From: a virus
Lineage: Duplodnaviria > Caudoviricetes
Length of the DNA stretch: 64,000 bases
Direction: 5' to 3' (one strand)
IMG/VR virus record: IMGVR_UViG_3300021399_003599
Shown here piece by piece: positions 1 through 64,000 of the stretch. Each line of letters starts with the position of its first letter. The first letter of the stretch is position 1. Made by a program: the position numbers and the translations under genes. Under the pieces are notes generated by a model that ran no database searches, was not told where the DNA came from, and worked only from the letters and a program-made list of their open reading frames with translations.

Positions 1-3000
1 ATTGATATTAACGGAAATGCTGATACCACAGATGTTAAAATTTATGATATTATCCAAGAGTGTGTGAATCATTATGGAGAAGAAGATTTAGAGAATATTA
101 TAATTGACGATGTTCCTCTTCAAATAAAACAAGTTATGTCATGGAATAGTCCCACTCCTATTTATGGATATTATCAAACAGATACAAATACACAACAAGC
201 TAATTCTTATTTTTTGACATATGAAATTGACGATTCCGTTGTTGCTAATTATCAAACATATCAACAAGGAGATAACGTTGGTTACATTTACACAGATTTT
301 GTTTGGGTAGGAGAAGATTTAGTTGCGGCGCCTGGTGAAACAATCACCAGCATCCTAGATAAAATTAAATCTTTCTTAGGTAACTATGAATATTACTATG
401 ACGTATATGGAATATTTCATTTTCAAGAAATAAAAAATTATTTAAATACAACTCTTGCTAAAACAGTAACAGATATTCTAGAAGACACTAGATATATCAA
501 TAATATTCTTGGTCAATTAACAGAAAAAGATTATGTTATTGAAACTTCTGCACAAAAATCTGTATATAATTTTACAGACGGAAAAAATTTAACACAGCTA
601 ACAGTAAATCCTCAGTATGAAAATATTAGAAATGACTTTATTGTATTAGGTGAAACCGATGGAAATATTAAATCTAGCGTGCGGTATCACCTTGCTATTG
701 ACAACAAACCAGATACGAGTATAATTTACAATACGCCTATGATCTGCTATAAAAGATCAGACGGTTTAAAAGCTTTAAATATACCTGTCGCGGTTGATCA
801 AAGTAAAGTTGGAGCAGATGTAACTGCTTCTGTCTATAGTGATTTAAATACTTATAAAGATTTTTTAGATAAACAAAAACAAGATGCAATTAATCAAATA
901 AACGAACTCCAAAAACAAGAGGTTAATAATGCTTTTCAAACCTATTTAGATAGAGTTAATTCTGATGCATTAACAAGTAATCCTATATATACTTTTCAAG
1001 AAGACTTACAGTATCAAATAGTATCAGAAAATGGAAAAAATATTATTAAATTTAAAGATGGAGAAAATTATACTGATAATTGTCTTTATATAACAGATAG
1101 TCCATCTTGGTATGAAGAATATTTAAATCATATTGAAGAGTGTGAAAAAATAAAAGAGCAAGCTCAATTATTAAGTATTACACAAAACCAAATTACAGAA
1201 AGACATCAATTCGATTCACATTCTATGCTTCTTTTTGAGAGCGATCAAGAATTAAAAGAAAAAGCTTCTAAGTTAGAAGACGATTTATCTAAAGAAATTC
1301 TTTATTTTTCTGAGAACCATCCTCCGCAAGAAGATAAAGACTATAAAAAAGCTCAACTTGAAATTGCTATTGCTAATATTGCTAAGAATAGTATAGCAAA
1401 TAATTCTAATATTAACAATAATTATTCTTTAATTCATAAAATTGACACAAATACAAATGTTGAACAAGAGTTAAAACAAAAACAATTTGAAGAATGTGTT
1501 AGAGTCTTTATTCAAAACCAGATCTTACAAAAGACAGGCAATACTGGAATTATTTATTACTATAAAGATCCTTTTAGTGATGACTTCGATAAAAATATTT
1601 ATTTTTATTGGAATAATAATCATAAACAATATGAATTAATTGACTATATTGCAGAATATCCTGACGGATATCAAACAACAAATTGGCAAACCCATCTTTA
1701 TATTATGGGATTGATTAACCGTAATCTTGCTAAAGACAGTTCTCAATATCAAAACATTAAAAAGAGTATTATTAATAGTTCTTTTAATGTTTCTTCTACT
1801 CTTGGAAAACTTGTAAATGCAGATTATTATTTTGAAGAATTAAATGCATTTTGGCCTTTGGTATTTGACTTTGAAGCTAATGATTATTATGGGTCTAGCA
1901 TACACAAGGCTAATAACAATAATATATTGAATAATTTAAAAAATAAAAAAGAGATTTTAGAAAGTAATTTAGACATTGCTAAGGATATAAAAGAAGAAGC
2001 TGACGCGCAATCAATTGCGTTTTATACATACTTCTCTAAAGTAAAAGGAGAACTTGAAAAAGTAAATTCAACTATCAAAGATAACTTAGCATCAATAAAA
2101 ACAAGTCAATCAGATTATCGAAACTATACTTACTATAAACTAATCGCGGACCCTACTGTTTTACACTCTCCAACAAAATGGTTCCTTGATATATATGATT
2201 TTGCAAAAAATTTACATACTAATTTCTTTATGGGAAAAATTCCGGAGTCTGACTTCTTTAAAGATACTGATTATTTTATAGAAAATAATTTAGTAAATAG
2301 TGGTGAATTAGGAAATTCAGAAACATTTACTTCTCAAGTTTATCAAGAATTGTTACCTGCAGTTTATAATATTGTCACAACACTTCCAAGACTTTTATTA
2401 GACTGGATTAAAGATTGTCCTTACATATTAGGTATAGACGCAAGTAATCCAGATGCAACTCTTAATGAAGTAATTGACAATCAACAATTATGGTTTGAAA
2501 ATCAAAAAGAATCTTTTTATAAAATTCGCGGAAATGCTCAAACAATTTTTGAAGTTTTAATGCATACTAATGCAGGAGAAAAAATATTTGCAGAACAATA
2601 TTATGTTACTAAACAAAAGCTTGATCCTACAGCAATTCCTTTAACTTGGTTCTCTACTCTTGATAAAATTATAGAAATACTAGGGACAATGAAATCATTA
2701 TTAAATCCTACTTTCGATGAAGTAAAAGCAGTTTCAGAAAATGATAATGATAATCAGAAAGCAATAGTTTTAGAAAACGCAAAAATTTTTAACCCTTTAA
2801 TAGAGTCAAATCAATATTACTATGGCGAAGAAGATATATCTTTATTTAATGTAGAAGATATTTATAGTCGATGGCCCGCAATAAAAGAAAATTTAGTTGA
2901 CGCGCAAATAACTATTGACCCAAGAGATCCAGAAAATGAAACTTACCAACAATGGCTTCAAAGATGGTTCAATATAGCCCAAGAGCCAAAGAATTATTGG

Positions 3001-4732: not shown

Positions 4733-4739
4733 ATAAAGT

Positions 4740-5285: not shown

Positions 5286-5296
5286 ACAAAAGCTCC

Positions 5297-5710: not shown

Positions 5711-5743
5711 AATTATATACCCCCAGTCAAATATGACTTATTT

Positions 5744-6448: not shown

Positions 6449-6453
6449 ATCCG

Positions 6454-6531: not shown

Positions 6532-6558
6532 AATCAAATTATTTAATTATGTCCAATT

Positions 6559-8780: not shown

Positions 8781-8791
8781 TTTAATCCTCC

Positions 8792-11133: not shown

Positions 11134-11619
11134 TTACCAAGCACTAACTTTTTTAGATATTAAACTAGTACCGATACAAATAGCGTCACTTTCATCTTCA
11201 GTAGCTTCAATATGATAATGCTCTTTTACAAAATTCATTGAAGCTTTTTTCTGTTCAGCTCTAAGCTTTCCAAAAGCAACACCATATATATCCTTTACGT
11301 TTTTACGCCAAACCATTGGAGGTACAATCTCATAATCCATTTTATTATTAACACACCATAACAAAATAGCACCCTGAACCTGAGCTAAAACCTTAAAAGT
11401 TTTAACATTACCATTTTGTTCTTGTATATCTTCAAATACAAGTCTATCAAAATGATATTTCTGCAGTAATTCATCCAATAGATCAGTGAGTTTCAATAAT
11501 CTCTTTTCTATCGGATGGTTTGCGGGCGAGCTTATATGACCATAATCAATTAGATGATCCTCATCAAATACACAATATCCGCTTACTTTACTACTTTGAT
11601 CCAGGGCTACAAAAAGCAT
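11134..11619 (-). CDS. RuvC-like Holliday junction resolvase
   Basis: RNase H-fold catalytic motifs ALDQSSKVSGY, VFEDIQ and DESDAICIG. Confidence 0.85.
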   Translation of the reverse strand: MLFVALDQSSKVSGYCVFDEDHLIDYGHISSPANHPIEKRLLKLTDLLDELLQKYHFDRLVFEDIQEQNGNVKTFKVLAQVQGAILLWCVNNKMDYEIVPPMVWRKNVKDIYGVAFGKLRAEQKKASMNFVKEHYHIEATEDESDAICIGTSLISKKVSAW

Positions 11620-18622: not shown

Positions 18623-18827
18623 ACTTTTTCTTCCCTAAAACAAATTGAATTTCTCCACTATTGGAAGAAGTTATTGCTCTTTTACATTTAGGACATTCCC
18701 ACCCATAACGAGGTGGCTGTACAGGATAAACTATACCTGTTCTTTTCATTGGAGTCTTACAGCCAGGGCATAACTCAATCTCTCTATACATTTTTTTAAC
18801 ATATTGTCTTATTTTCTTTTTACCCAT
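18615..18827 (-). CDS. Zinc-ribbon protein
   Basis: CPGC...CPKC, 70 aa, overlaps neighbours. Confidence 0.7.
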   Translation of the reverse strand: MGKKKIRQYVKKMYREIELCPGCKTPMKRTGIVYPVQPPRYGWECPKCKRAITSSNSGEIQFVLGKKKYV

Positions 18828-21800
18828 TATAATCCTCTAATTCATCTGCTCTAGCATATTCCATCTCAATAGTTCCATTACTATGTACTTTATTTATTTT
18901 ATAAAATTGATGACTATTGGATCGCTTATAACTCTTTAAGAAAAACATATCTCCTCTTCGATATCCATTACAAACACAGAGAGTTCCCTTTTTAAAAAAA
19001 CTATCTTCAATATAATGTTTATCTCCATCTTCTCCAATTTGAGAAATCTTCTTTTTACGAGAAGCATAAAAATCTTTACTCATCTTTACAGTAACTACAC
19101 CACTATCTGTTGTTAATAAACTAACGCAAGATTTCATATCATCTTTTGCAATAATCGTTCCCATTATTCGATGAGTTTTATAAATTGGAATACTTGCGGC
19201 ACCCCGCTTAAACATATAATCTACTTCAGGATCTTCTGATAAACTATTAAAAGATACAATATTATACAAAGATTGATTCACATTAATAAGCTCGTGCGGT
19301 GAAGCATAAAAACTAAGACTATCCATTTCCCATTTTGCTAAGCTACCGCTTGCATACTTATCCCACATTTCATTAAACAAACTATTATTCAATTGCCGCA
19401 AAAGTTCTTCTGCGTGTTCTTTAATATATTGCTTTGCAACATCCATTGTTTTATCATACTGTTTTTTCCATACTGTTTTAGCAATAACTAAATCTCCATC
19501 ATCATCAACTTGGAGTAAATCAATGTTAAAAAACTTTTCATAAAATCTATAATAATTATCTTTGATAACAAAACTCTCACCTTTTTGAACTTCTTTTAAT
19601 GCTTTATTAAAAACAAAAGTTCTCTTTTGAAGATCTAACTCATCAGGTAATAAACCTTTTTGATTTAACCCATTAAAATTCTGCATCGTTAAACGCTTCT
19701 TAGGTTCACAAACCATCCAAATATAATCTCGCATAATTTGTTCTCTGTCATCAAATTCATCAAAGGCTCCCGATTTAATTAAAGCAACTGCTTGAGTTTT
19801 ATTTACTTTAACCTTATTTAGAAAATCTTCTAATGACTCATACGGACGATTATTAATTATCTCTTCAATAATCTCTCCATTAATACCAGTTAAGCCTTTC
19901 ATACCAAAAATAATTTGATTCTTTTTTGAATCTGGTTCAAACATATATTGTGATTGATTAATATCAATTAAAGATACTTTAATTCCTTTGCTTACCATAT
20001 TACCAATAGCTTTCGCTACCTTACTATAATTTGTTGATGAATCTTCTTCAAGCCCTGCGTCTACCCGCAAACACGCAGTATTCCAATAGATAGGATTAAA
20101 ATAAGTTGCTAAATACGCACACTGAACCGCAATCAATGAATAACTATATGTATGTTCCTTATTAAAAGCATATCCCATTTGTTCGTTAAATAAAACATCC
20201 CAAATATAATGTCCTAGTGCGGGCGACTTCGCTTTTTCAAGAACTATCTTATGAAGTTCTGGAATCTTATTCATTAATTTCTTACCGATTGTTTTTCTTG
20301 CGTCGTTTGTTGTTTTTAGATCAAAACCAAATAATCTTTCATCCATCATCATTAGCATTAAGTCATCTTGTAGTGGCAAAGTTCCATAACTGTAAGAACA
20401 ATATTCTTTAATAATATCCTGCTCTTCCTGCGTGAGCCCCGCACTTGTCATTTCATCATACCACTCATCAGGATTATTTTGAATACGATAATATCTGTCT
20501 ACAGGCGTTTCCGCGCCCTTTTCCTGTGCCATTAATCGAATTAACGCATTAATAGCTGCTAGCTCTTGGACTGATCGAGGCTTTAACTTCTTTACTGCTT
20601 GCCCACCTACTTGAGTATCAAACTGAAATAGATTTAAAACTTCTAGCTTATCAATTGCATCCCAAATCTTAGGATCCTCTAATGGTAAAACGTCTGGATG
20701 TAGATACTTATTATATAAATTCTTTAAGGATAGATCTTTATCTATTTCATTTTTTTCTTGTAACATTAAAAGACATTGAGTAATTTTTTCCATTACATCT
20801 GTAACAAGAGAATCAATCTTAACATACCCTGCGCTTTCAGAATCATGAAGACTCCATTGAGTAATGATTGTTCCATCAGGAGCAGTCATAACTGCTCCTC
20901 GACTATACTCTTGCCCTGGTTCGTTAAATACAATTCCCGATGCATGGATTGATCTACTGCTAATTGTACCTTCTAGCTTCCTAATAATATTCAAAAGTCC
21001 AGGATATTGATTAACCGCATTTAAGAAAGTTTTATTAGGCTTTAAATCTTTTTCTGGGTTTCCTTCAATCATATCTGTAATGGTATAAGTAAAACCTCTC
21101 TGTTGACCAACTAATGAAGTTAAATACTGAGCTTGATCAACATCAATACCATTAGGAAAATCCTCTGTTCGATATCCTCTACAAGCTGCGAGAATTGCTG
21201 CCTTGCTTGACATAGTTGAAAAAGTACAAATCTGAACTAGACCTAACTCTCCTCGTTCTTCCCTAATCTTTTCAAACCACTTAGGTCTAATTGTTGGCGG
21301 CAAATCAAAGTCAAGATCTGGTAACTCATACCTGCTTTTATTTAGATAACGGAAATAATTATTTACTCCTGCTTTAATAGGATCATACTGAGTTAGATTC
21401 ATTAAATAATTATCAAGACCCGCGGATGAACTACCACGACCAGTTCCAATGCAGCCGCCGCACTCCCAGATTAAGTCAAAATAATGCTGAAGAAAAATCG
21501 GATAACTAAAAATACAAGTTCCAAGAGCTTCACCAATTGTTAACTGAACATCCGCTTCGCTGTCTAACTCAGATAAATATTGATCATTATCAAGACCTTT
21601 TTCCTTTAACTTATCTACACAATAATTAACCCAATATCTTTCCTGCGGATTATCGCTATTATAAAGTTTATTTAAAAAGTTATATTTACTTTCCTTTTTC
21701 TGCTTTGGAAAATCTGGAACTACTACCTGCGGCACTTGCTGATTATGTAACAGAGAATACTCTTCTACCTTATCATACATTTCCATGCTATTGGCAAAAA

Positions 21801-22656
21801 GTTGATCTACATCACAACCAACTGGTTCTAGATGTTCGCGGATATCATCATATGATTGAAGATATGTAAACCCATAAAATGAATCAATATCTTCTCGCTC
21901 ACCCTGTTTACTATTTAATAATGCTTTGTGCGCAATAAAATCTTCCTGCGTTAAACGATGACTGTCATCTTGAACCGTAGCTTTAATTCCAAATACATTA
22001 CAAAGTTGAAGTGTTCTTTGATTAACAAAAATCTGATCTTTATAAGTTGCAGGTGCTATTTCAAAATAAAAATCATCTTCAAATTGTTCTTTACAAAATA
22101 AAACATGTTTAACAATTAGATCATGAGCTGTCTTACGAGCTAAATCATCTCCAACTTTTTCAGCCTGTTTCATTGCTAAAAGCTGTTGACCAATTAAAGA
22201 TCCGATACAAGCGCTCGACGCAATTAAATGACCTTTACCATACTCTTTAATAACACCAGCTAATTCATCATATAACAAAGGAACCCTTTGAAGTCCTCGA
22301 TCAAAATAACTATTTAACCATGCGATTGAGGACATTTTTCTTAACATTTCATGCCCTCGAGCATCTTTCGCACAAAGAAGAAAGTGATAATATCTTTGTT
22401 TACTATCTCTTGTTTCAGTTAAATAAATTTCATTTCCTAATGCAACTTTAAAATTAGGATAATCACTTTTTAACTCTTGCGCATACTTATTTAAAATGAT
22501 ATGACTTGATAAGGATTCATGTTCACTAATCCCAATCATATCAATTCCTAACTCAATTGCTTTATCTACAATCGCAGTAGGGGAAGATAAAGCATCTAAA
22601 AGACGTAAATTACTATAATAACTATGATTGTGAATTGATGCACGATGATTTGACAT
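18820..22656 (-). CDS. dnaE: DNA polymerase III alpha subunit (family C)
   Basis: PHP domain (HNHSYYS, SEHE, DDSH), GRGS, catalytic PDLDFD, SIHASG, GYAFNKEH; likely start ATG 22656 with AAGGAG RBS. Confidence 0.95.
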   Translation of the reverse strand: MSNHRASIHNHSYYSNLRLLDALSSPTAIVDKAIELGIDMIGISEHESLSSHIILNKYAQELKSDYPNFKVALGNEIYLTETRDSKQRYYHFLLCAKDARGHEMLRKMSSIAWLNSYFDRGLQRVPLLYDELAGVIKEYGKGHLIASSACIGSLIGQQLLAMKQAEKVGDDLARKTAHDLIVKHVLFCKEQFEDDFYFEIAPATYKDQIFVNQRTLQLCNVFGIKATVQDDSHRLTQEDFIAHKALLNSKQGEREDIDSFYGFTYLQSYDDIREHLEPVGCDVDQLFANSMEMYDKVEEYSLLHNQQVPQVVVPDFPKQKKESKYNFLNKLYNSDNPQERYWVNYCVDKLKEKGLDNDQYLSELDSEADVQLTIGEALGTCIFSYPIFLQHYFDLIWECGGCIGTGRGSSSAGLDNYLMNLTQYDPIKAGVNNYFRYLNKSRYELPDLDFDLPPTIRPKWFEKIREERGELGLVQICTFSTMSSKAAILAACRGYRTEDFPNGIDVDQAQYLTSLVGQQRGFTYTITDMIEGNPEKDLKPNKTFLNAVNQYPGLLNIIRKLEGTISSRSIHASGIVFNEPGQEYSRGAVMTAPDGTIITQWSLHDSESAGYVKIDSLVTDVMEKITQCLLMLQEKNEIDKDLSLKNLYNKYLHPDVLPLEDPKIWDAIDKLEVLNLFQFDTQVGGQAVKKLKPRSVQELAAINALIRLMAQEKGAETPVDRYYRIQNNPDEWYDEMTSAGLTQEEQDIIKEYCSYSYGTLPLQDDLMLMMMDERLFGFDLKTTNDARKTIGKKLMNKIPELHKIVLEKAKSPALGHYIWDVLFNEQMGYAFNKEHTYSYSLIAVQCAYLATYFNPIYWNTACLRVDAGLEEDSSTNYSKVAKAIGNMVSKGIKVSLIDINQSQYMFEPDSKKNQIIFGMKGLTGINGEIIEEIINNRPYESLEDFLNKVKVNKTQAVALIKSGAFDEFDDREQIMRDYIWMVCEPKKRLTMQNFNGLNQKGLLPDELDLQKRTFVFNKALKEVQKGESFVIKDNYYRFYEKFFNIDLLQVDDDGDLVIAKTVWKKQYDKTMDVAKQYIKEHAEELLRQLNNSLFNEMWDKYASGSLAKWEMDSLSFYASPHELINVNQSLYNIVSFNSLSEDPEVDYMFKRGAASIPIYKTHRIMGTIIAKDDMKSCVSLLTTDSGVVTVKMSKDFYASRKKKISQIGEDGDKHYIEDSFFKKGTLCVCNGYRRGDMFFLKSYKRSNSHQFYKINKVHSNGTIEMEYARADELEDYNG

Positions 22657-22695
22657 ATTACTCCTTATCAAATCTAAGAACTATATTATGTAATA

Positions 22696-22724
22696 ATTAT
22701 ACTACATATTTTAACTACTGTCAA
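22696..22724 (-). promoter_or_regulatory. SigmaA/70-type promoter for dnaE
   Basis: TTGACA-17 bp-TATAAT. Confidence 0.85.
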
Positions 22725-22725
22725 C

Positions 22726-24513
22726 TTAGAAAATCCACTCTTCTCTTAGTTCATAATCCTCTAACAGAATTTGTGGTTTACAATTACCGTTCCATTCATT
22801 AACGCTACAAGTACCAATAACAGTTAAAATTTTATTTGGTTTAATTAGTTCATTATAAAAATCTTCATCTGTAAAGAATCTAATAATCTCAACGCCACAG
22901 GGCAAAACAATCTTTACTGTGTTCTTTTTTGCTCCCATTAATTGAACAGAGCAGCGACTAAGATCTATATCTTCAATGCAGATATAAGGCTCTGAAACCC
23001 CTTGTCCCCAACATTGTTTCATATTTGCAATAGTTAAAATAGTTAACATAGCTACATTATCAATATCGTACATTGTCCAAATGTAATCAACATAATAAGT
23101 TGGTTCATGACTAACGCCTTCAAGTTTTTGATTTAAATATTTTATAAAATCAGGAACGTTTTCTACGGGGATAGAACATCCAAAAGCAGATGAATGTCCT
23201 TGCGCAAACTCTACTAAATTACTCTCTTCAATAATCTCTCTTAGATTATTAATTGAACTATAACTATTATTTCTTCCCGACCCACGATAACAATTAGTTT
23301 CTTTATCATAAGTTAAAACTAAAGCCGGCCGCTGATACTCATTTGCTATCTTTGTAGCAGCAAGCCCCGCAATTGCGGGAGATATTTCCCCAGGTGCGCA
23401 TAGGCATAAAATAAAATTATTATCAGTTAATTTATCTTCTTTGATAGAATCTTCCAAGAACATCATAGACAAATCTTGCTCTTTGTTTTGTCTTGCCTTT
23501 ACATTTGCGGCAACTCGCACAGCTTCTTCCCATAAAGGCACTTGCTCTCCTTTATGTCCCCTTTTGTTACTGGCAATTAATTCATTCGCATTTATCTCGA
23601 GCATAGCATCGAAAATCAAAAATCTTTCTTCGAGAGTTCCTGACCGGACGCACGCATTAATAAAAGGTGTAACATACCAAGCTACGCCATTAAAAGTACA
23701 TCCACCTTTTTTCTCCATTGAAAAACTATTCTTTTCAGCCATTCCTTTAAAGAAAGGATTTTGAATATTCTTTAGTCCAATATCAATGATAGCCTTATTT
23801 TCAACATTATTAAAAGGCATTACGTCTGAAAGAATTCCTAGTGCAGCTAAATCTATAAATTTATTTGCATAATTATATTTAAATTTTTCATCATAGCATC
23901 GACAAAACTGCCAAGTAACACCAGCTCCAGATAATCCTTTATTCCAATAGTCATCACTAAGTTGGTTATTAACAGTAATAACATAATCCAATTGCGCGGC
24001 TTGCCCCTCGTGGTGATCTAAAATAACAATATTCTTAATATCATATTTATCATGTAAAAGTATCATCTGATCATGGTCATTGGTTGCGGCGTCTGGGCAA
24101 AAAATAGTTGTAACATTTGAAGCAGCAGGAGGTTTGATTTCTTCCTTCTCTAGATATTCACAATAATCAGCAAGTCCATGCTCTTTTTCTTTATGCATAA
24201 AATAATGAACGTGATGATCCGCATATACTACATCGACATTAAAGATATAATTCATAAGTATCGCCGCGGAAGAAAAACCATCTGCGTCCGCGTCAACAAT
24301 AATTAAAATGTCTTCATGATTTTGCATAACTTTGTATAAAACATCTACAGCCTTTTCCATGTTATTTAATTTTGTCCAAGGCTCAATACTTTCAAATCCC
24401 GCATTCAACCATTGATATTGATCTTCTGATTTAATATTTCTATTATTTAGTATATATTCAACTGGACTATCAATATACTTTAAATTTTCTTCGTTAATAT
24501 ATTTGTACTGCAA
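22726..24513 (-). CDS. recJ: RecJ-like ssDNA exonuclease (DHH family)
   Basis: DADADG, LDHH, LSGAGV, GSGR, QGHSSAFG; TTG start with AGGAG RBS. Confidence 0.9.
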   Translation of the reverse strand: MQYKYINEENLKYIDSPVEYILNNRNIKSEDQYQWLNAGFESIEPWTKLNNMEKAVDVLYKVMQNHEDILIIVDADADGFSSAAILMNYIFNVDVVYADHHVHYFMHKEKEHGLADYCEYLEKEEIKPPAASNVTTIFCPDAATNDHDQMILLHDKYDIKNIVILDHHEGQAAQLDYVITVNNQLSDDYWNKGLSGAGVTWQFCRCYDEKFKYNYANKFIDLAALGILSDVMPFNNVENKAIIDIGLKNIQNPFFKGMAEKNSFSMEKKGGCTFNGVAWYVTPFINACVRSGTLEERFLIFDAMLEINANELIASNKRGHKGEQVPLWEEAVRVAANVKARQNKEQDLSMMFLEDSIKEDKLTDNNFILCLCAPGEISPAIAGLAATKIANEYQRPALVLTYDKETNCYRGSGRNNSYSSINNLREIIEESNLVEFAQGHSSAFGCSIPVENVPDFIKYLNQKLEGVSHEPTYYVDYIWTMYDIDNVAMLTILTIANMKQCWGQGVSEPYICIEDIDLSRCSVQLMGAKKNTVKIVLPCGVEIIRFFTDEDFYNELIKPNKILTVIGTCSVNEWNGNCKPQILLEDYELREEWIF

Positions 24514-24528
24514 TTGACGTCTCCTGTC

Positions 24529-25602
24529 TTATAGCATTATTCTATTCCTCCAAAGAAGTAAGAATACATCTTTTGTTCTATCTAAAGGACTTTCTTTATA
24601 ACCTAAAACTCCAAATTTGTCAAATAGAACACTTACATTAACTTTAGAAGAAAATTTATTCCCTAATTTCTCTAACTTAATAATTAATTTTTTATAATCT
24701 TCATCACCAAGTTCATGAAAATCTTTATCAAAACCAATACATAATTCTTTGATACCGCAATCTAAAAGTAAATCAAATTGATAATTACTAATGCTGCTGC
24801 CGCAAACAGCTACACATAAATTATTTTGTAAACCAAAAAAAGTCATGCTTTTAAATACTGACTTTTCTGCTTCAACAACAATAGCGGTTTTCGCTTGCTC
24901 AATATTATTTTTACTCCAATTTAATCCAAATAAATTAAATCCAAGAGGAGAGTTATAAAGTTTTCCATTAATTCTTGCGGGACGATACTTCCCATATTTT
25001 TCATTCTCTTTAATTAATGTTCTTTGTCTGATACCAATTAATCTATTATTCTCATCATAATGAGGAATAATTATTGCACCTTCTATTGGATTATATCGAA
25101 TACCTGCATAATCACAAACTTCTTTAGAGATACCTTCTTCCATCCAAGGAACAATAACCGGTTGCGGGAAATGCTCAATAACTTTTTTATCGACTTCTGG
25201 TAAAGCAATTTTTTGTTTATCTTTTATTTGCAGATTAGAAATATCTTGATACTTTTTTAATATCTTCCAATCTTCTTCTACTATTGGATCAAATATATCT
25301 TTTAATTTCCAAGTTAAGTTAGCTTGTTGAACAACAAAATAAATTGCAGTATTTAAATCGACATTTTTCACTTTCATGATCAATTGAAAGATATCCATCG
25401 TTTCATCGCAGTGAGTCCAACATTTAAATAACTGTGTATTAAAATAATAATATAGTTTTCTACTATCTCCGCCATGACAAATCGTTAAACATTCAATATG
25501 ATCATTTACTAATTGCGGCTCTGCTCCGATTAATTCAAGAATATCAAATACATCTTCATCTGTCAAAGACTCTTTAACTTCGTCTTTATTATAAGTTATC
25601 AT
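24529..25602 (-). CDS. DNA primase (Zn finger + TOPRIM)
   Basis: CLTICHGG...CWTHC, IIIPHYD, VVEAEKS, GFDKD; next to helicase. Confidence 0.85.
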   Translation of the reverse strand: MITYNKDEVKESLTDEDVFDILELIGAEPQLVNDHIECLTICHGGDSRKLYYYFNTQLFKCWTHCDETMDIFQLIMKVKNVDLNTAIYFVVQQANLTWKLKDIFDPIVEEDWKILKKYQDISNLQIKDKQKIALPEVDKKVIEHFPQPVIVPWMEEGISKEVCDYAGIRYNPIEGAIIIPHYDENNRLIGIRQRTLIKENEKYGKYRPARINGKLYNSPLGFNLFGLNWSKNNIEQAKTAIVVEAEKSVFKSMTFFGLQNNLCVAVCGSSISNYQFDLLLDCGIKELCIGFDKDFHELGDEDYKKLIIKLEKLGNKFSSKVNVSVLFDKFGVLGYKESPLDRTKDVFLLLWRNRIML

Positions 25603-27132
25603 TTACACCCCCACTTCTATTTCTAATGGTCTAATATCTGTAATTAATTCATAGTTATAATTTGTAACAAAAACAGTTTCAAATCTACAAGTCGCTTTAT
25701 TCGCTATCTGCCAAAGATAACATCTAACAAAACCGCCTCTTCTGTTTTTATACACGGCTAATTTAGTATTAGGAACATCACAACCTAAATCTCGAACTAT
25801 ATTTTCAATTTTTTCTTTGTCTTGTTGAGTTACATCAAGAAGAATCGCACCAAGATCTGCTCGGTCAGAAATAGCTTTTGCTCCTCTTAATAGATTCTGA
25901 TCTGGTTGCGTGTCTGTTTTCCACTCAGAGCTTAACTGAGTACTCGTTAATACAAATACATTAAATTGATTAGCAATGTCTTTTAATTTTGCAGATAACA
26001 AAAACAGAACATTATCTTCGCGTAATCCTTTTACACCTGCTTTACCGCTAACTTCACTTAAAATAGATAACGTTGATTGTAAATAATCTAAGAAAATAAA
26101 CTGACAACCATTCAATCTAATATTTCTTTTAATACAATTCTCTACATCTTTTAAAGAATAATCTGGCATATCAACAACATATAACAATGAATCTTTTAAA
26201 ACTTGAATCGCTTTAGTAATCCGTTCACGTTCATGAAATTGAACCTGCCCATTTAATATTTTACCTTCATCTACTCCTGAGATAAAGGCTAATGCCATTG
26301 TTTGAACTTCTGTTAAGTCTAACTCTGTGCTAATATATAATACTGGCTGACTAATACCAATGCTTTTCCACTTATTCAATTTTACATCATATATTTCATT
26401 GCAAGCAATATAACAAGCATCCGCAATCATAGTTCTTGTTTTGCCCACGCCAGTTGCGGCGCTCCTAATATAATAACATCCTAACCTTGCTCCTCGACAA
26501 ACCGTATTAAAAAAACTATCATATAAAGGAGTACCAACATCAGGTTCTTGTTCTAGTTTTTCAAATAGTAAGTCTAAGTTTTCTCCAATAGACCGACTCT
26601 CATCTATTGAATTATCTACTTTTTCAGCTCGAATATTTAAAATTTTATTTTCAATTAAATCTGCTAATTCATTCAAATTATATTTATCTAGAGTATCTTC
26701 TTGATGTTCTTGTAATTTAGTATTAAAAACATCATCTGGATCATATATCCAAGATACATCTACTCCTACTTCTTCATATGCACGAAGAAGAGTCATCTTT
26801 TTCATTCGAGAATAATAATATTCAAAATTATCAAGATCCGCGGATCTAGCTATTTCCGCAACCCATTCATTCCCTCTATTAGCTGAATAAATACCATAAC
26901 TATTTGGTCGATTCTTTAAATAGTCTTCTATTGATTGCGGGGTCACGTGATTAGTCCCCATTTGATGTAGATTAAAAATCGCACCAAAAACTACTTTATG
27001 TAAATCATTTGTAAAATCTTCTTCGTTATAAAAATGACTACCATCTTCTGTTAACAAATTAGGATTTTGAATTGTGCATCCAATAACTTGGAGCGCCGCA
27101 GTCGTATCAATATATTTTGAATTTTTCAACAT
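25603..27132 (-). CDS. DnaB-like replicative helicase
   Basis: Walker A AATGVGKT, ISTEL, Walker B FLDY, TSTQL, KNRRG. Confidence 0.9.
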   Translation of the reverse strand: MLKNSKYIDTTAALQVIGCTIQNPNLLTEDGSHFYNEEDFTNDLHKVVFGAIFNLHQMGTNHVTPQSIEDYLKNRPNSYGIYSANRGNEWVAEIARSADLDNFEYYYSRMKKMTLLRAYEEVGVDVSWIYDPDDVFNTKLQEHQEDTLDKYNLNELADLIENKILNIRAEKVDNSIDESRSIGENLDLLFEKLEQEPDVGTPLYDSFFNTVCRGARLGCYYIRSAATGVGKTRTMIADACYIACNEIYDVKLNKWKSIGISQPVLYISTELDLTEVQTMALAFISGVDEGKILNGQVQFHERERITKAIQVLKDSLLYVVDMPDYSLKDVENCIKRNIRLNGCQFIFLDYLQSTLSILSEVSGKAGVKGLREDNVLFLLSAKLKDIANQFNVFVLTSTQLSSEWKTDTQPDQNLLRGAKAISDRADLGAILLDVTQQDKEKIENIVRDLGCDVPNTKLAVYKNRRGGFVRCYLWQIANKATCRFETVFVTNYNYELITDIRPLEIEVGV

Positions 27133-27140
27133 CAGCCCTC

Positions 27141-27644
27141 CTAATTTAACTTAAAGAATTTTAGCCTTTTAGGTTTTGCTATTGGAGTTGGTTTAATTGT
27201 AAGTTTAATTGAATCAGATAAATTTTGTTTAACAACTTGATAATCAATATCTTTATTTAATTTTTTATTCTCAGCTTGATTTTTATAATACTGGTATGCT
27301 TCTCCAAATACATAATCTAAAATAGCTATACCACCATTTGCTTTTTCTGGACCACCTTGACGAACTTCAACCCAATACTTTAAAGCTTGGTAAATTTCTT
27401 CGGGAGTCTTACCTTCTTTAATAAAATGTCTATATTGTATATTATATTTTCCTATATTTAAACTATCTCCTAACCATTTAGAAGCTAGTTCAAAAGTTTG
27501 TTTTTTAATTACTTCAATCTGTCCTTGATTTTCTGCACAAGTTTTATGAGCATATCTTTTCGCGGAAACCTGCACATATTCAGTTTCTTCTCTTCTAAAG
27601 CTTTCTCCGCAATAAAGACATTTAACTGGAGCTAGTCTTGCCAT
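27141..27644 (-). CDS. Zn-finger hypothetical protein upstream of helicase (possible loader/regulator)
   Basis: CLYC...HKTC; has its own promoter; gene position. Confidence 0.6.
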   Translation of the reverse strand: MARLAPVKCLYCGESFRREETEYVQVSAKRYAHKTCAENQGQIEVIKKQTFELASKWLGDSLNIGKYNIQYRHFIKEGKTPEEIYQALKYWVEVRQGGPEKANGGIAILDYVFGEAYQYYKNQAENKKLNKDIDYQVVKQNLSDSIKLTIKPTPIAKPKRLKFFKLN

Positions 27645-27672
27645 TATACCTCCTTAAAATATATTCTAATAA

Positions 27673-27701
27673 ATTATAACATAATTTAAAGAAGTCGTCA
27701 A
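27673..27701 (-). promoter_or_regulatory. SigmaA/70-type promoter
   Basis: TTGACG-17 bp-TATAAT with extended TG. Confidence 0.8.
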
Positions 27702-27703
27702 AC

Positions 27704-27738
27704 AAAAAAGGTCTACCTTTCAGATAGAAAGGTAGACC
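27704..27738 (-). terminator. Intrinsic terminator
   Basis: GGTCTACCTTTC-5 nt-GAAAGGTAGACC with a U-tract on the - strand. Confidence 0.85.
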
Positions 27739-27752
27739 CAAGAGAAAAGGTA

Positions 27753-28754
27753 TTATAGTCCGTTACCTACTTGTTCAACAAGTTCATTATAACATACTTC
27801 AAGAAGTTCTACCTGATCAGGAGTAAGATCACTAACTCGCTTACCCTTACCAAGTACTCGATTTGTAATTTCTACAATCTTAGGAGCCCAAACAGTTGAG
27901 AACTTATCTCCAGTAGCTCCTTGAATCTTCTTAACAAGAGTACTAAAATCAGTCTTTAGCTGATCAAAATCAGGCTTTTCTTCAGTATAAATTTCAGCTT
28001 TCTTATCAGTAACAAACTGTCCATTATTAGCTTCTGCTTCTTTATCGATGGCGTCACCAATAGCATCAACAAGATTTTGGTAATTAAATTCAATCACGTT
28101 AGGAGTGAATCTAAATCTTGATCCAGCAACAAAACGAGGAGTTCCGCGCATAAAGAGCATAGTCTTTACTTCTCCATCTTCATTCTGAATTGGGTGCGCG
28201 TAACCGATAATGTCTGCCATACGGTCAACAACAAGTCGAGGACTATTGCTCAACGTAGGTACAATTTGATTGTACTCATTTCCATTCTCGTCCTTGAAAG
28301 TTTTATCTTGAGCATGGCTAATCATAATTAGACCATAACCCATTTGCGGGATCGACCTTAAAGCTTCATCAAACTCTCGACGAGCTTGAGCATAACCTCC
28401 GCCATAAGGTACGTCCGCAATTTTATCTTTCTCATTCTGTTGACAGATATATTTCTCGCAAAGATCATAAGCAATATCCGCGGTATCTACAATAACATTT
28501 TCATACATTTGATGCGCTTCATCGCTTTTAAGCTGCTTTAAAATATTTTTAAACTCAGACCATCTTGTAACAGGAGTTGCCATAACATTAGGTAGGGCTA
28601 GGTAACCAATTTCAAAACCTAGAAGAAGAGCTTTATTAAATTTTGACGCAATGGTTGTTTTTCCAGTCTTTGGAGCTCCGTAAAATAAAATTGTATAGCC
28701 CTTTAGATCTCTAGAGATTTCGTGTGGTTGAATTTTTAAAATATCAATAGCCAT
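27753..28754 (-). CDS. AAA-family ATPase, Sak4-like recombinase
   Basis: Walker A YGAPKTGKTT, VIVDT, MISH, ADIIGY; adjacent to SSB. Confidence 0.8.
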   Translation of the reverse strand: MAIDILKIQPHEISRDLKGYTILFYGAPKTGKTTIASKFNKALLLGFEIGYLALPNVMATPVTRWSEFKNILKQLKSDEAHQMYENVIVDTADIAYDLCEKYICQQNEKDKIADVPYGGGYAQARREFDEALRSIPQMGYGLIMISHAQDKTFKDENGNEYNQIVPTLSNSPRLVVDRMADIIGYAHPIQNEDGEVKTMLFMRGTPRFVAGSRFRFTPNVIEFNYQNLVDAIGDAIDKEAEANNGQFVTDKKAEIYTEEKPDFDQLKTDFSTLVKKIQGATGDKFSTVWAPKIVEITNRVLGKGKRVSDLTPDQVELLEVCYNELVEQVGNGL

Positions 28755-28799
28755 TTGTGCTCCTTTCTAATTAATTAAAATAATTAAATAATTAATTAA

Positions 28800-29726
28800 T
28801 TAGAATTCAAAATTAGCCATTGAAGTCGGGGCAGCCTTCTGCTTAGGCTTCTCATCAAAAGGAAGCTCCGAAGTAAAGCTATTGCCTCCCCTATTTGCCT
28901 GATATTCATCATGACGCTGCTTTACGTCAGCAAGATGTTCCTGACGAGCCTGCATCTTCGCCTTAAACTCTTCCTGAGTAATTGTGTCTTCGTCCCAAAG
29001 ATCCATCTGAGTTACAGCGCAACCAACAATATCCCATGAACGGACAGTTCTAGTAGAAACATTTACACTAGGAGCACCCCAAGCAGATTCAACTTCCTGC
29101 TTAGTCTCAATTGTTGTTGAGATAATATTGCCCCAGAGATTAGTTAACATAGGATTCGCGTTAGAAATATCTTCATCCTGGAAATACTTAATACCACCCT
29201 TATCACGGACATTAAAGTCTACAGGGACAAGATCGTTGCGGAAGTTAAAGACATAGCCACGAATAGTTAGATAATCATCGCCATCTTCCACTTCCTTCTC
29301 AGCGGTTCCCGCAATCAGCATATCAACATCAAAATTAGCTCCAAAGTTTGGAGTTCCAGTCAGCTCATGGATAAATCCACCTTCAGGACGCTTAGCTGAT
29401 ACCATATTGCCGTCACGACCAATAAAGTCATTAATTCCAATAGCAGAATCAATTCTAACCTTCATTGCATTCTGACCATCAGACTGATAAGTAGGAGCAC
29501 CATTAATCAGCTTCATCATAATAGGCCACTTGCTATTCGCGGTGCCGCTGTTAAAAGTCTCTGTCTCATAAATATATGAAACTGAAACTACATTCATTGC
29601 ATTTTCATCAACTGCAACTTGAATATCTCCACGAATATACTCTACACCCTTCGCGGAGACTCGCTTCTCTAGAGTATGACCAAAAACATAACCTTCAACA
29701 TGAACAGTATTCTTAAAATTTCGCAT
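28800..29726 (-). CDS. Single-stranded DNA-binding protein (putative)
   Basis: OB-like N-terminus (NTVHVEGYV), acidic/aromatic C-terminal tail (LPFDE...FEF), position in the replication block. Confidence 0.65.
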   Translation of the reverse strand: MRNFKNTVHVEGYVFGHTLEKRVSAKGVEYIRGDIQVAVDENAMNVVSVSYIYETETFNSGTANSKWPIMMKLINGAPTYQSDGQNAMKVRIDSAIGINDFIGRDGNMVSAKRPEGGFIHELTGTPNFGANFDVDMLIAGTAEKEVEDGDDYLTIRGYVFNFRNDLVPVDFNVRDKGGIKYFQDEDISNANPMLTNLWGNIISTTIETKQEVESAWGAPSVNVSTRTVRSWDIVGCAVTQMDLWDEDTITQEEFKAKMQARQEHLADVKQRHDEYQANRGGNSFTSELPFDEKPKQKAAPTSMANFEF

Positions 29727-31476: not shown

Positions 31477-31743
31477 TTACTCAGCGTCCTCAGACTCAGG
31501 CTTCTCCATATCGGGATCGATGTTCTCACCCAGAGAAGTGCAACGAATAACCTTCTTCTCAATACCATCAATCTCTACACGCTCAACAAAGCCCTTCTTC
31601 TGAAGGCCAGTGGCGATACCATTGATCTGACGGCTGGTGAACTCAAGGGCCTCAGCCAGATCATCAGCGGTTAGATTAGCATTGGGGTTATTCTGAAGAT
31701 AACGAAGGACCGCAGCGGAATTCTCAGTAAGTAGACGAGCCAT
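31477..31743 (-). CDS. Small winged-helix DNA-binding protein
   Basis: Likely start ATG 31743 with AAAAGGAG RBS; LTADDLAEALEFTSRQINGIATGLQKKGFVER wHTH; own promoter and terminator. Confidence 0.8.
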   Translation of the reverse strand: MARLLTENSAAVLRYLQNNPNANLTADDLAEALEFTSRQINGIATGLQKKGFVERVEIDGIEKKVIRCTSLGENIDPDMEKPESEDAE

Positions 31744-31821
31744 AACACATTCTCCTTTTCCGAAAGCATTTGCTTTCAAACCGTGAGGGGGTTCTTCCCC
31801 TCTTAACTAATTTACAAACAT

Positions 31822-31850
31822 ATTATATATTATTATTTTTTAAAAAGCAA
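31822..31850 (-). promoter_or_regulatory. SigmaA/70-type promoter
   Basis: TTGCTT-17 bp-TATAAT. Confidence 0.7.
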
Positions 31851-31857
31851 ATTATTT

Positions 31858-32895: not shown

Positions 32896-32924
32896 ATAAT
32901 ATCCTTTCGTTAATTATTAAAGAT

Positions 32925-32953
32925 ATTATATATTAATTTTTTTATTCCGTCAA
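32925..32953 (-). promoter_or_regulatory. SigmaA/70-type promoter
   Basis: TTGACG-17 bp-TATAAT. Confidence 0.8.
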
Positions 32954-35056: not shown

Positions 35057-35057
35057 A

Positions 35058-36914
35058 TTACTCCCTTACTTGGCTGAAATCGATCTTATTAAACACGAAC
35101 TCTTTGCGGGCAACGCCTGAGCTGCCCATCAAATCTTCAAGAAGTTTAGTTGCTTGTTTAGTTGGATTAAGAATATCCATTCGTTGATTCTTACCAAACA
35201 TAGACGCTTTAGCTTGGTCCGCGCTCAACGAACCCAAACCCTTGTTACGTTGTACCTCACCATTAATCGTCCCACGAGCAGCATCCATCTCTTCATCAGT
35301 GAAATAATATTCTTCACCTTTCTTTGTCTTTACAATATAGAGCGGTGACCGCAACCAACATAGACGCTGTTCCTCAATAAAATCAGGACAGAAATGTTGA
35401 AGTGCGGTCGCAATTAGAAGAGCGATATGATATCCATCGCTGTCTGAGTCTGTACAAATAGCAACTCGGCCATAACGCAACTCTGTAGGATCATAATTAT
35501 TAGGCGTGATATTAAGTGCCTTTAGTAAAAGCTGAATTTCTTCATTCTTACTTAACTTTTCATCGCTATTGGAAAAAGCATTAATTAGCTTACCGCGCAA
35601 CATTAGAATCCCATATTTCTTTCTATCTCGAGCAACCGCCATACTCGCTCCAGCAGAAAGACCTTCTACGACCAAGAGAGTGGAATCTTGTCCAAGGTAC
35701 TCAGCATCCTTTAATTTATCTGGATGAAGAATTTTAATTTTACTAGTAGCTTTTTTCGCTTTTCCTTCTCGTACCGCTTCTCGAGCTTTCTTTGCGGCTT
35801 CTGCTGCTTTGCGCGCAATGATCGCTTTCTCTAGGATAATCTTACCTTCATTTGGATTATTATCTAGCCAAATCTCAAAAGCGTCACCAAAGTTTGAAGA
35901 AATAAAACTTGTATCAATTTTTGTAACATTTGTCTTTACTTGCGCGTCATACGCTACACCTTCTGCGGTGATATTACAAACAAGAACAAGCCCTTCTTGT
36001 AGAGCAGATCCTTCAAGATTTTTATCTTTTTCTTTAAGAATTCCTTGCTCTTTTGCCCATTTATTCAAGACTCTTGTCAAAGTACTTTTAATGCCTGTGA
36101 TGTGCGGACCATTTGTAGTTAAGCCGCAATTAACATAAGCAGAAAATTCAGAAGAAGTTTTAGAAGTATAAGTTAAAGCTAAATCGATTTTCTGTTTATC
36201 TTTTTGCTTTTGAACTACTAATGGTTTATTAATGATCTCAATACTATCACCAATATTTTTCTTTAATAGATCAATAATCCCATTATTATGTTCAATTAAT
36301 TTATCATTGAAAATAATTTTTAACCCAGGACAAAGACAAGTGATATCTTCGCAAAAGTTATAAAGTTTCTTCTGATTAACTCTTGGATCTGTAAAGAATT
36401 TTTCGCTTGGTTGAAATGTTACTTTTGTTCCATCAGGGATATCTTTTCCTGAAAACAACGTCCTTCCAACACAGACGCCTTCCTTAAAATTAACTGTTTC
36501 TCCTTGACCATCATGAAAACTATTAACAGTTAACCAATGGGAAAGAAAGTTAGCAAGCTTTGCGCCAATACCATTCAAACCAATTGCGGTACCTTCATAT
36601 ACTCCATCATCACGATATTTACCAGAAGTATTAATTACGTCAAAAGAAGCTTGAAGGACACTTTCTCCATCTTCACGTATAACGTTAATAGGAAAACCTT
36701 GTCCGTTATCCGCAATCATAACTTCTTTATCTGAAACATTTACATGAATAGTATCTCCATGTCCAATATTATATTCATCAATAGCATTACCAAGAATTTC
36801 AATAGCTAGCTGGGTAGCATCAGCTGTATCTCCTACATACATACCTGGTCTAAGTCGAACATGCTCTAAAGGAGATAAACTTTCAATAGAATCTTTTGTA
36901 TAAGTATTATTCAT
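35058..36914 (-). CDS. Type IIA topoisomerase subunit B (GyrB/ParE-like)
   Basis: HVRLRPGMY, NAIDE, DNGQG, GLNGIG, VEGLSA, LRGK, TDSDSDG, RNKGLG. Confidence 0.95.
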   Translation of the reverse strand: MNNTYTKDSIESLSPLEHVRLRPGMYVGDTADATQLAIEILGNAIDEYNIGHGDTIHVNVSDKEVMIADNGQGFPINVIREDGESVLQASFDVINTSGKYRDDGVYEGTAIGLNGIGAKLANFLSHWLTVNSFHDGQGETVNFKEGVCVGRTLFSGKDIPDGTKVTFQPSEKFFTDPRVNQKKLYNFCEDITCLCPGLKIIFNDKLIEHNNGIIDLLKKNIGDSIEIINKPLVVQKQKDKQKIDLALTYTSKTSSEFSAYVNCGLTTNGPHITGIKSTLTRVLNKWAKEQGILKEKDKNLEGSALQEGLVLVCNITAEGVAYDAQVKTNVTKIDTSFISSNFGDAFEIWLDNNPNEGKIILEKAIIARKAAEAAKKAREAVREGKAKKATSKIKILHPDKLKDAEYLGQDSTLLVVEGLSAGASMAVARDRKKYGILMLRGKLINAFSNSDEKLSKNEEIQLLLKALNITPNNYDPTELRYGRVAICTDSDSDGYHIALLIATALQHFCPDFIEEQRLCWLRSPLYIVKTKKGEEYYFTDEEMDAARGTINGEVQRNKGLGSLSADQAKASMFGKNQRMDILNPTKQATKLLEDLMGSSGVARKEFVFNKIDFSQVRE

Positions 36915-63000: not shown

Positions 63001-64000
63001 AGCTACATCTGCAACTATCACAGGAACAATTAATGCTACCAACGGATATATAGGTAGCAGCGCTACCGCGGGCTGGGATATTGATGGTAATATTATTAAG
63101 CATGTTACTACCACAAATGCTGGGGCAGGAAAAACAAGTAATTATATATTAAATGCTGCTGGTAATACGTCAGCGACTATCAACGGAACACCAAGATCTA
63201 ATTTAGCATTAACTATTGGTAGTAAATTTGGTGTTGACAATGATGGCAACTTATATGCAAGTGGACTTAATATTACCAATATAGATATTAATAATACTAA
63301 TCTTGAAATTGGTGGTAGAAACTTAATTAGATATAGTAATCAATTTAAAGCAGGAAGTGTTGCTTCTTCTTCTGTAATGCAGCAAACAGTTGATGAAAAT
63401 GGTTGGTATAAAATGGTTATCTCTGGAACCAATAATAATTGGAATGCTGGTTGGTATTTACCCCAAACTGGAGGGTGGCTCGTTGATGATAACCTTAATG
63501 AAGGAGATCCTTTTACTGTTTCGTTTATTATGAAAGCTACAGGATCTACCATTATACCAACTATTTATTTAAAAAATGGTTTAGGATATTTCCAATTACA
63601 AGGAGAATTATCAGAAAATTGGTCTACTGTTTCTTATTCTGGCACATGGCAAAAAGCAAATAACATGGAACCTCACTTGGGATGGGGAGCTATAAACACA
63701 AATTCAACTTATTGGATCAAGGCATGGAAACTTGAAAAAGGTAACGTTGCAACTGTTTGGACTCCTGCTCCTGAAGATGTAACTGATTTTGTTAATACTC
63801 GTAATAGTGAAACTGGAGCAATTATTGATTCTGCTCTTGATGCTATTACTAGTGCACAATCTGCGGCAGATAATGCTGCAGCGGCAGCCTTATTAGCTCA
63901 ATCAACAGCTGATGATGCTTTGCAAGATGCAAATACCGCCAATACAGCTGCTGCAAACGCTCAAAACAAAGCAGATCAAACCGCATCAGATCTTAGATCG
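60023..64000 (+). CDS. Second giant tail fibre-like protein, 3'-truncated (absent from the ORF track)
   Basis: AGGAGG RBS, ATG 60023 (MAILGDLLVQGSSRF...); still in frame at 63722 (AWKLEKGNVATVWTPAPED); three CBM-like modules and IGGW(T/F)I repeats. Confidence 0.85.
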   Translation, partial: MAILGDLLVQGSSRFLQHIYASSLTISDDFTATGDLNVGGAATIAGTLTLTKNTGLAYNSNTGPALIVGGLASAQHLEFDPNEIQSKSNASTTADLYLNAGGNKVVIGVSSATTEVLNVRGKATFAQPVTFSSAVTHSSNLTVNGTTSLKGTGVSGTLSVSGLTTIQNSLIVEEEIRSPKWIIDNIANLGGEFVVAPTIVCTEPTVAVSGTTITITDSSITGAEFAGTTWTNGSIVKVSGTIKNVVLTSVNGTMTRELNATTTHTIQFTVPSGTTLPANGTYSGANVKNLHIMLYKRGGTAPVGIFMTSYGNTKKPYIEIYDGTLEANQTFYTPRVRLGHLANLKNSAGTQVTINGLTPEGWGLYTDRGYFSGVIVSKQGNIGGWTIDDAALYKGTDSLDSKTKGLFLGTNGIRNYESDTQYVNITAGKITALGVDLTGEITATSGTIGGLTIKNSYITSNTSKTTYNNTSVDGVFIGPTGIGLGKGKFYVSNAGALTATSGTIAGWTIGANTISHGTLGATNGYMLNSAGNSSTTINNTSKTNWALTIGNKFGVDNEGNLYANGANITNITIGNTDLQIGGKNLLGNTGNSKVTILNNSSTSATFMSIGNYNDAETLYSFINYDGYSNAISVGSSTSTGNRGVSWYTKPGKIIAGQKYTFSCKIKCSVATSVHMHTAWRNGSATAVYTGWTSEGVKAISANVWTDYVCTFTPNSSANLNYEFLVAICITGVSGGAIYQVAHAKLEKGNIATAWTPAPEDTVNGGGENLLKKDYTAFNQTSYLVYNIPTTVSLTEMGEGTILTFQAWGVVPDNNSSGIYVYWGGGSINLFNKMLPDENGYICQTITITSSQASHSNASNKFIHIYNFVSGHSGMNLTIDHWKLEQGSIPTPWSLASEDVDYSITHIDGGNITTGNISADRIKTNLLTAINASITKLSALTATIGGFTIKDTYITSNTNKTTYNNTSVDGVFIGTTGIGLGKGKFYVSNTGALTATSATITGTINATNGYIGSSATAGWDIDGNIIKHVTTTNAGAGKTSNYILNAAGNTSATINGTPRSNLALTIGSKFGVDNDGNLYASGLNITNIDINNTNLEIGGRNLIRYSNQFKAGSVASSSVMQQTVDENGWYKMVISGTNNNWNAGWYLPQTGGWLVDDNLNEGDPFTVSFIMKATGSTIIPTIYLKNGLGYFQLQGELSENWSTVSYSGTWQKANNMEPHLGWGAINTNSTYWIKAWKLEKGNVATVWTPAPEDVTDFVNTRNSETGAIIDSALDAITSAQSAADNAAAAALLAQSTADDALQDANTANTAAANAQNKADQTASDLRS
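61360..63780 (+). repeat. Diverged internal tandem duplication (about 1.5-kb period)
   Basis: YITSNT.KTTYNNTSVDGVFIG.TGIGLGKGKFYVSN.GALTATS is encoded at about 61391 and about 62876 (offset 1485 bp); ALTIG.KFGVDN.GNLYA is also duplicated. Confidence 0.85.

Follow-up and report, generated by a model that had tools for sequence, protein, structure and literature searches.

Two dispersed short words as possible strand-polar signals in SPbeta-like gut phages

We analyzed a 64,000-nucleotide stretch of Caudoviricetes DNA (IMG/VR record IMGVR_UViG_3300021399_003599; the window), which is part of a ~146-kb, lytic-looking rumen phage, and found two independent short words, TGCGG/CCGCA (word 1) and CT(C/A)TTGG (word 2, the heptamer), that are dispersed over both strands in excess of codon-aware expectation. 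We propose, at a probability of roughly one in three (0.35), that SPbeta-like gut phages of ~140 kb write two strand-polar address codes. The heptamer CTCTTGG would be read by a phage-encoded Sak4/YorH/DnaB machine for loading or recombination, as a dispersed signal of the phage's own for which there is no described precedent, and the word with a GCGG core would be either a gut-anaerobe Chi site or the target of a second phage reader. The two words lie in the window as follows.

1..64000, both strands: word 1, dispersed TGCGG (88 on the plus strand) and CCGCA (91 on the plus strand), with the graded consensus (T)YGCG[GC][GC], also given as YGCGSS
54..63219, both strands: word 2, CT(C/A)TTGG, 44 copies on the plus strand (first 1799, last 63213) and 39 on the minus strand (first 54, last 60006)

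Excess of the two words and choice at silent sites

A preliminary description, made from the letters alone, had reported a both-strand excess of CCGC/GCGG from hand counts, which proved exact: 12 copies in positions 1-3600 and 14 in 32980-34950, 9 of them CCGCA/TGCGG in each case. The excess extends over the window at 3.1-fold over base composition (totals of 184 CCGC, 169 GCGG, 91 CCGCA, 88 TGCGG, 59 GCGCA and 41 TGCGC), and the two orientations of word 1 show no skew. Of all 4-mers, CCGC/GCGG ranks first when judged by a maximal-order Markov model (353 against 200 expected, z 14.7). A synonymous shuffle within each gene leaves CCGC at 351 against 180 (z 16.6) and CCGCA at 179 against 65 (z 17.1), and the excess remains when the codon-junction base is also fixed (351 against 265, z 11.4; 179 against 109, z 10.0). 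The preliminary description had named loss of the enrichment under a codon- and dicodon-aware null as refuting, and no such loss occurred. Measured against a motif-free codon baseline, the window genes hold 168 copies of word 1 where 35 are expected, and 161 of 1005 synonymous opportunities for it are filled (55 for a neutral sequence). Its sites are spread evenly (homogeneity P 0.08), with a mean gap of 358 bp pooled and ~710 bp per strand. The word is graded: TTGCG[CG][CG] occurs 84 times against 15, CGCGG is raised 3.3-fold and TGCGCG 5.6-fold. GCGCA, which had been listed as a co-enriched form, is present as a variant, but it is weaker and found mainly in this lineage. GGAAC/GTTCC, considered as a further word, is a Markov outlier, yet reaches only 1.2-1.3-fold under codon nulls.

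The silent positions are informative about the cause. Where a base is silent, C1, C2, G3 and C4 of the word are each raised ~2-7 fold, whatever the frame and in both coding senses; the excess is therefore not the product of one-base repair or of escape from TGCA. We reject the possibility that the word arises as a side effect, either of avoiding a restriction site (TGCA to CGCA/TGCG) or of codon-pair bias. TGCA is indeed depleted (197 against 281), but the equally available escapes ACGCA (62) and TCGCA (57) are unenriched compared with CCGCA (179), relatives without a TGCA deficit keep CCGCA at 6-8-fold, and the junction-aware null does not remove the excess. Silent C and G inside CCGCA/TGCGG differ among strains at 2 of 57 positions, compared with 62 of 309 outside (P 0.001), a rate of change about six times lower; against the related locus L003 the figures are 19/38 and 146/201 (P 0.008). 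Between species at 50-70% protein identity, the sites turn over. Taken together, the excess over codon nulls, the enrichment in all frames and the lower silent divergence within sites bear out the earlier suggestion of a selected DNA-level signal. We conclude that word 1 is a real, selected DNA-level signal, the selection being weak and genome-wide.

An origin without selection is improbable; here a drive of the Vsr or HIP1 kind, through repair directed by the motif or through shielding it from mutation, would raise the equilibrium frequency of the word. In its favour, a lower mutation rate would also reduce silent divergence inside the sites, and the odds boost varies by frame (3 to 35 in the window). 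Against it, all four C/G positions are enriched, the transversion neighbours (CAGCA, CCTCA, CCGAA) are depleted as much as the transition ones, there is no conserved methyltransferase, and the same-strand avoidance described below is not predicted. Sense and antisense copies are near equal in three sets (78/90, 202/225 and 243/215; neutral expectation ~2:1), which is only suggestive of selection to keep both orientations, because the odds boost differs by frame.

Word 2, missed by the preliminary description, occurs 80 times against 18 expected under codon nulls in the window (CTCTTGG 32 against 6, CTATTGG 48 against 12-14), at about one copy per 1.5 kb per strand, and is likewise over-represented at silent sites. 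No positioning of word 2 relative to word 1 was found in the window.

Spacing and strand behaviour

To analyze pairs of sites, we used a null that draws sites only from positions at which synonymous codons allow the word. TGCGG pairs lying 6-60 bp apart on one strand number 83 against 138 expected, those on opposite strands 130 against 112, and the control word AGCAG instead clusters on the same strand. For word 2, the coefficient of variation of the per-strand gap is 0.63 in the Enterococcus phage EF1 (P<0.001) and 0.79 in the relative G004 (P 0.005), and its orientations alternate beyond chance in the window (51/82, P 0.02) and over 12 loci (z 4.4). Copies of both words avoid neighbours on their own strand only, which suggests a polar reader that scans one strand. 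The simplest reading is a diminishing return per strand, with a scanning enzyme acting at the first copy that it meets. For word 1, the depletion of same-strand but not opposite-strand pairs gives indirect support to polar single-strand recognition and does not tell which enzyme reads the word.

Same-strand and opposite-strand cases would be alike for a methyl mark and for a protein that coats the duplex, so the avoidance points away from both. A modification motif of the host or of the phage, methyl or phosphorothioate, that licenses DNA as self is a distinctly improbable account of word 1; a methylation or self mark had been considered in the preliminary description. Modification marks typically sit at short, non-palindromic words found on either strand, and genome G347 carries a C5 methyltransferase. 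However, only one of five near-complete relatives has a PF00145 match while all five carry the word, so that a phage C5 methyltransferase does not account for it, and PF01555 (N6/N4) is found in none of them, Dam/D12-type enzymes not having been searched by profile. The specificity is also graded rather than all-or-none, and host systems of this kind are patchy whereas the word is clade-wide. Very improbable in turn is a double-strand binding protein (a packing or nucleoid protein, a MarR-type helix-turn-helix (HTH) protein or a terminase) that coats the genome at the words, a form of which had also been put forward. It would fit the even coverage, the two orientations and the graded flanks; a symmetric double-strand binder, however, does not predict that close opposite-strand pairs stand at expectation while same-strand pairs are depleted, and the HTH gene went undetected in many word-bearing loci.

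Distribution and candidate readers

The loci of the clade (topoisomerase A at least 54% identical to that of the window and grouping with it) all show CCGCA at 2.4-5.1-fold, and most have CCAAGAG, the other orientation of CTCTTGG. A more distant clade has CGCGC/GGCGCGC or CGGCCGC in place of CCGCA. In complete relatives both orientations of word 1 occur genome-wide with no flip with GC skew, and the word is homogeneous along the human-gut relative G006 (P 0.34) and Enterocloster phage PMBT24 (P 0.91), and mildly uneven in G004 (P 0.02). Translated with TGA=W, G004 contains 458 TGCGG against 119 and 65 CTCTTGG against 10. Stop-codon recoding varies in the family: G004 falls under TGA (coding density rising from 0.45 to 0.72), G841, G842 and Phass-1 under TAG, and the window and G006 use the standard code. 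Along the phage tree word 1 takes the form YGCGSS in the window, TGCGGC in G004 and G006, GGCGCGC in clade II and GCGGCG in Phass-1.

The closest cultured relatives by Sak4 are the Enterococcus phages EF1, H1 and VRE9 (50%), and EF1 is sister to the window's clade in the Sak4 and DnaB trees (support 1.00). A published grouping of such genomes, at ~100-145 kb, includes EF1, Phass-1 and an Enterocloster phage (PMC10607447). In EF1, CTCTTGG is the top 7-mer (48 against 10), while TGCGG is at expectation (37 against 36) and topoisomerase II is missing; in the VRE9_1 segment CTCTTGG is the second 7-mer (12 against 2), and G842 has the variant CTCTTGA (80 against 22). Word 2 is not enriched in SPbeta, Phass-1, PMBT24 or G841. 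PMBT24 infects Enterocloster bolteae and has a pac-type, circularly permuted genome (PMC11035940). It over-uses GCGGC (107 against 25) and TGCGGC (43 against 9), with no heptamer. It also over-uses GGGGC/GCCGGG (75 against 27; 20 against 2), possibly a second word of its own. Neither word is enriched in SPbeta, a Staphylococcus SPbeta-like phage or Lactococcus phage 949. Crude counts gave Butyrivibrio phage Ceridwen a TGCGGC excess (30 against 6 for the reversed word). The heptamer thus follows phage descent over very different hosts. The GC word follows gut-anaerobe hosts, since it is missing from EF1, which is close and has a Bacilli host, and present in PMBT24, which is distant and has a Lachnospiraceae host. 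Few independent contrasts lie behind either pattern.

We consider the leading, though unproven, reading of word 1 to be a Chi site recognized by host AddAB, with chances somewhat short of even. In this reading, weak selection across the genome would maintain two distinct polar signals on each strand, each read by an enzyme that scans one strand directionally and for which the first copy met would suffice. For word 1 that enzyme would be a host helicase-nuclease of AddAB type, with TGCGG(C/G) as the Chi-like stop signal of a gut-anaerobe host. A terminally redundant, circularly permuted genome would need the word in both orientations everywhere; resection from an injected or broken end would then halt within a few hundred bases and leave a 3' tail for recombination, by which the genome would circularise or form concatemers; the same has been proposed for P1. 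It is the 3'-ended strand on which AddAB binds Chi (PMC4824097), and the GCGG core also occurs in the Chi sites AGCGG and GAAGCGG (bioRxiv 2021.07.08.451572). An addB/addA pair of PF12705 matches was found in 5 of 5 Lachnospiraceae genomes tested. As in the AddAB Chi sites of Firmicutes (B. subtilis AGCGG, S. aureus GAAGCGG, L. lactis GCGCGTG), the word has a GCGG core, is short, GC-rich and non-palindromic, and is apparently read in a polar manner; unlike them, it starts with T or C, has a graded 3' extension and has no matching polar excess in candidate host chromosomes.

Comparison with Chi-rich phages, namely P1 and relatives, the lambdoid LLS class and Pseudomonas MD8 (PMC12315714; bioRxiv 2021.07.08.451572), gives a mixed picture. 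As in those phages, one short word exceeds all others of equal length in over-representation, and codon usage is not the cause. P1 likewise has its word on both strands of a terminally redundant genome (50 Chi, 31 on the top strand; bioRxiv 2021.07.08.451572), at one per 1.9 kb, a density about five times lower than that of word 1 (one per 0.36 kb), whereas Chi is one-sided in LLS (20/23) and MD8 (32/32). In contrast to the Chi-rich phages, this phage has a word 1 that matches no demonstrated Chi and is uniform rather than concentrated at an end, its own recombination genes, and a second independent word.

Several observations weigh against the proposal as a whole or its Chi component. AGCGG is unenriched in the window (1.14-fold, 67 against 59 expected), and other known Chi sites are at or near expectation there (GAAGCGG 6 against 4, GCGCGTG 1 against 1). 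Nor are the Chi sites of their hosts enriched in SPbeta (AGCGG 0.71-fold), the Staphylococcus SPbeta-like phage (GAAGCGG 6 against 3) or Lactococcus 949 (no GCGCGTG), and crude reversed-word counts gave no clear excess in four other small gut phages. A replication-polar TGCGG excess was absent from ~1 Mb of nine Lachnospiraceae genomes with gene orientation controlled (score 0.02, rank 462/1024) and from five Coriobacteriia genomes. The phage has its own Sak4-like, RecJ and RuvC genes, unlike LLS-class phages, and in PMBT24 genes are annotated as RecA, RecD-like and Gam-like; word 1 sites are not concentrated near an end, unlike those of P1 and LLS. The endolysin of the relative G006, closest to Coriobacteriia and Bifidobacterium prophage lysins, points to Coriobacteriia as candidate hosts. 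TGCGG alternation is not significant in the window taken alone, and the even spacing or alternation of word 2 is not seen in G006, where the heptamer is densest. Finally, the gradual drift of word 1 with the phage tree also fits a phage-encoded reader.

The chromosomal negative is a weak one, because the polarity test barely detects the known Chi of S. aureus (19 against 11) and chromosomal Chi frequency has been argued to follow mostly codon usage (bioRxiv 2021.07.08.451572). GCGGC polarity in Lachnospiraceae is marginal (rank 22/1024, z 2.8). A leading-strand TGCGG/TGCGGC excess in Lachnospiraceae was set aside as a sense-strand codon-pair effect, being equally large in head-on genes. Several GenBank 'phage' records (L288-L292; OR844988 and OR846603 among the accessions) are host chromosome contigs and were used as controls. 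A literature search on these words or on clostridial Chi found nothing relevant. For the Chi mimicry suggested earlier speak the shared GCGG core and the apparent polar behaviour, but AGCGG is unenriched, candidate host chromosomes lack the signal and SPbeta-type relatives show no excess of their hosts' Chi. Since the phage has its own recombination genes and the word shows no end concentration, departing from the Chi-rich class in these two marks, and matches no known Chi, we have not filed word 1 as Chi.

Alternatively, and with distinctly lower likelihood, word 1 may be read by a phage-encoded strand-scanning protein (at a primase site, in primosome or helicase loading, or in recombinase nucleation) that evolves with the lineage. 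The specificity drifts smoothly with phage phylogeny across GC contents of 0.30-0.48 and recoded genomes, candidate host chromosomes lack the signal, and the per-strand spacing of 500-700 nt with same-strand avoidance fits priming sites. EF1, which keeps the heptamer without word 1, has a strongly diverged primase (30% over 114 aa). On the other hand, SPbeta and the Staphylococcus SPbeta-like phage have a very similar primase zinc domain and lack the word, and the unrelated phage Ceridwen may carry it. Topoisomerase II fitted clades I and II and Phass-1 as a general reader; it was rejected because PMBT24 has GCGGC and no annotated topoisomerase II.

The most likely reader of word 2 is a phage protein from the YorG(Sak4)-YorH-DnaB stretch of the replication module; the heptamer would tell it where to load or stop, with one site per 1.5-4 kb on each strand. 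The module was assigned from Pfam and PHROG matches and SPbeta gene order.

18820..29726, minus strand: SPbeta yorF-yorL-type replication module, candidate source of the heptamer reader
28800-29726, minus strand: YorF-like gene
27753-28754, minus strand: Sak4-like AAA_24 ATPase
27141-27644, minus strand: YorH-like gene
25603-27132, minus strand: DnaB
24529-25602, minus strand: primase with a CHC2-type zinc domain
22726-24513, minus strand: RecJ
18820-22671, minus strand: DnaE

The order YorF-YorG-YorH-DnaB-primase-RecJ-DnaE matches that of Bacillus phage SPbeta, whose homologous proteins are 28-38% identical; SPbeta itself has neither word. Phass-1 has GCGGCG in place of word 1 and lacks the heptamer. 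Primase sites of phages such as T7 and T4 and primosome sites are polar, lie on a single-stranded template and are needed about once per Okazaki fragment per strand, and the spacing of the heptamer is of the same order. Unlike the T7 and T4 sites, which have a three-base core, the heptamer is longer, and it persists in EF1 despite a very diverged primase. A phage sigma factor (phrog_5767 in G006) was rejected as the word 2 reader: its distribution is similar, but intragenic copies on both strands are not promoter-like. The sigma-factor-like gene lies just upstream of the packaging genes (L127:4074-5162, minus strand, and in G006), and its best outside match is in EF1. In the E. faecalis chromosome, CTCTTGG counts of 1 against 1 and 0 against 2 come from only 42 kb of coding DNA, too little to decide. 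A 33/33 plus-strand skew of CTCTTGG in the host genome G116 was dismissed as an artefact, as the DNA itself has no skew.

If word 1 is host Chi, phage genomes would read out Chi far more strongly (3-5 fold) than host chromosomes do, and for gut anaerobes, which have no known Chi, would provide both the sequence and a marker of the host. Should a phage protein be the reader of either word, that word would represent a new class of dispersed replication or recombination signal. EF1 and VRE9 have only the heptamer and PMBT24 only the GCGGC word, so the words are separable in cultured systems. Synonymous recoding of such phages would erase both signals.

The phage and its other genes

Proteins identical to those of the window are found on 146-148 kb sheep-rumen contigs, and strains ~95-97% alike occur in four further metagenome studies, three of them labelled sheep or cattle gut. 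The window uses the standard genetic code and encodes DnaE, RecJ, a primase, DnaB, the Sak4-like ATPase, NrdDG, both subunits of topoisomerase II, ligases for DNA and for RNA, and large tail proteins. Beyond the replication module, the following were assigned from Pfam and PHROG matches, the resolvase from PF02075 on the syntenic 161-aa gene in L130-L135.

31477..36914, minus strand: topoisomerase II, ligase and HTH block, rejected as the general reader of word 1
35058-36914, minus strand: type II topoisomerase B subunit
32954-35056, minus strand: type II topoisomerase A subunit
31858-32895, minus strand: ATP-dependent ligase
31477-31746, minus strand: MarR-type HTH gene
11134..11619, minus strand: RuvC-like resolvase

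The RuvC-like, Sak4-like, YorF-like and RecJ genes provide the phage with its own recombination parts. Between the window and L003, identity is only 50% for the Sak4-like gene (27753-28754) and 82-95% for the genes beside it; this is a gene swap, with two Sak4 types circulating within the clade. When 20 kb of G006 were searched for CRISPR spacers in 301 Coriobacteriia genomes, the matches were to the lysin and NrdD genes, besides one 27-bp match that is not a spacer.

Several palindromes are depleted in the window (TGCA as above; GTAC 132 against 190, TTCGAA 0 against 11, CTTAAG 2 against 13), which suggests restriction avoidance; human-gut relatives are nearly without GATC, and L007 is without TTAA. 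Four open reading frames (ORFs) at 8398-11112 on the minus strand (59, 336, 205 and 215 aa) have a similar N-terminal segment of ~50 residues; L130 has the 205- and 215-aa genes and L131-L135 lack them, so that they form a variable cassette. At 5019-7213 on the minus strand, a cluster of small genes that ends in a rubrerythrin-like 88-aa gene is kept in G004 and G006. The nrdD gene, uninterrupted in the window, is interrupted by a GIY-YIG gene in the strain variants L131:1-1365 and L134:135-1812. On the plus strand, a 4390-aa tail-type protein with collagen-like repeats (41816-54988) and an open-ended 1326-aa ORF (60023-64000) both vary in length among strains, and TGCGG is sparser in the latter, at 0.75 per kb.

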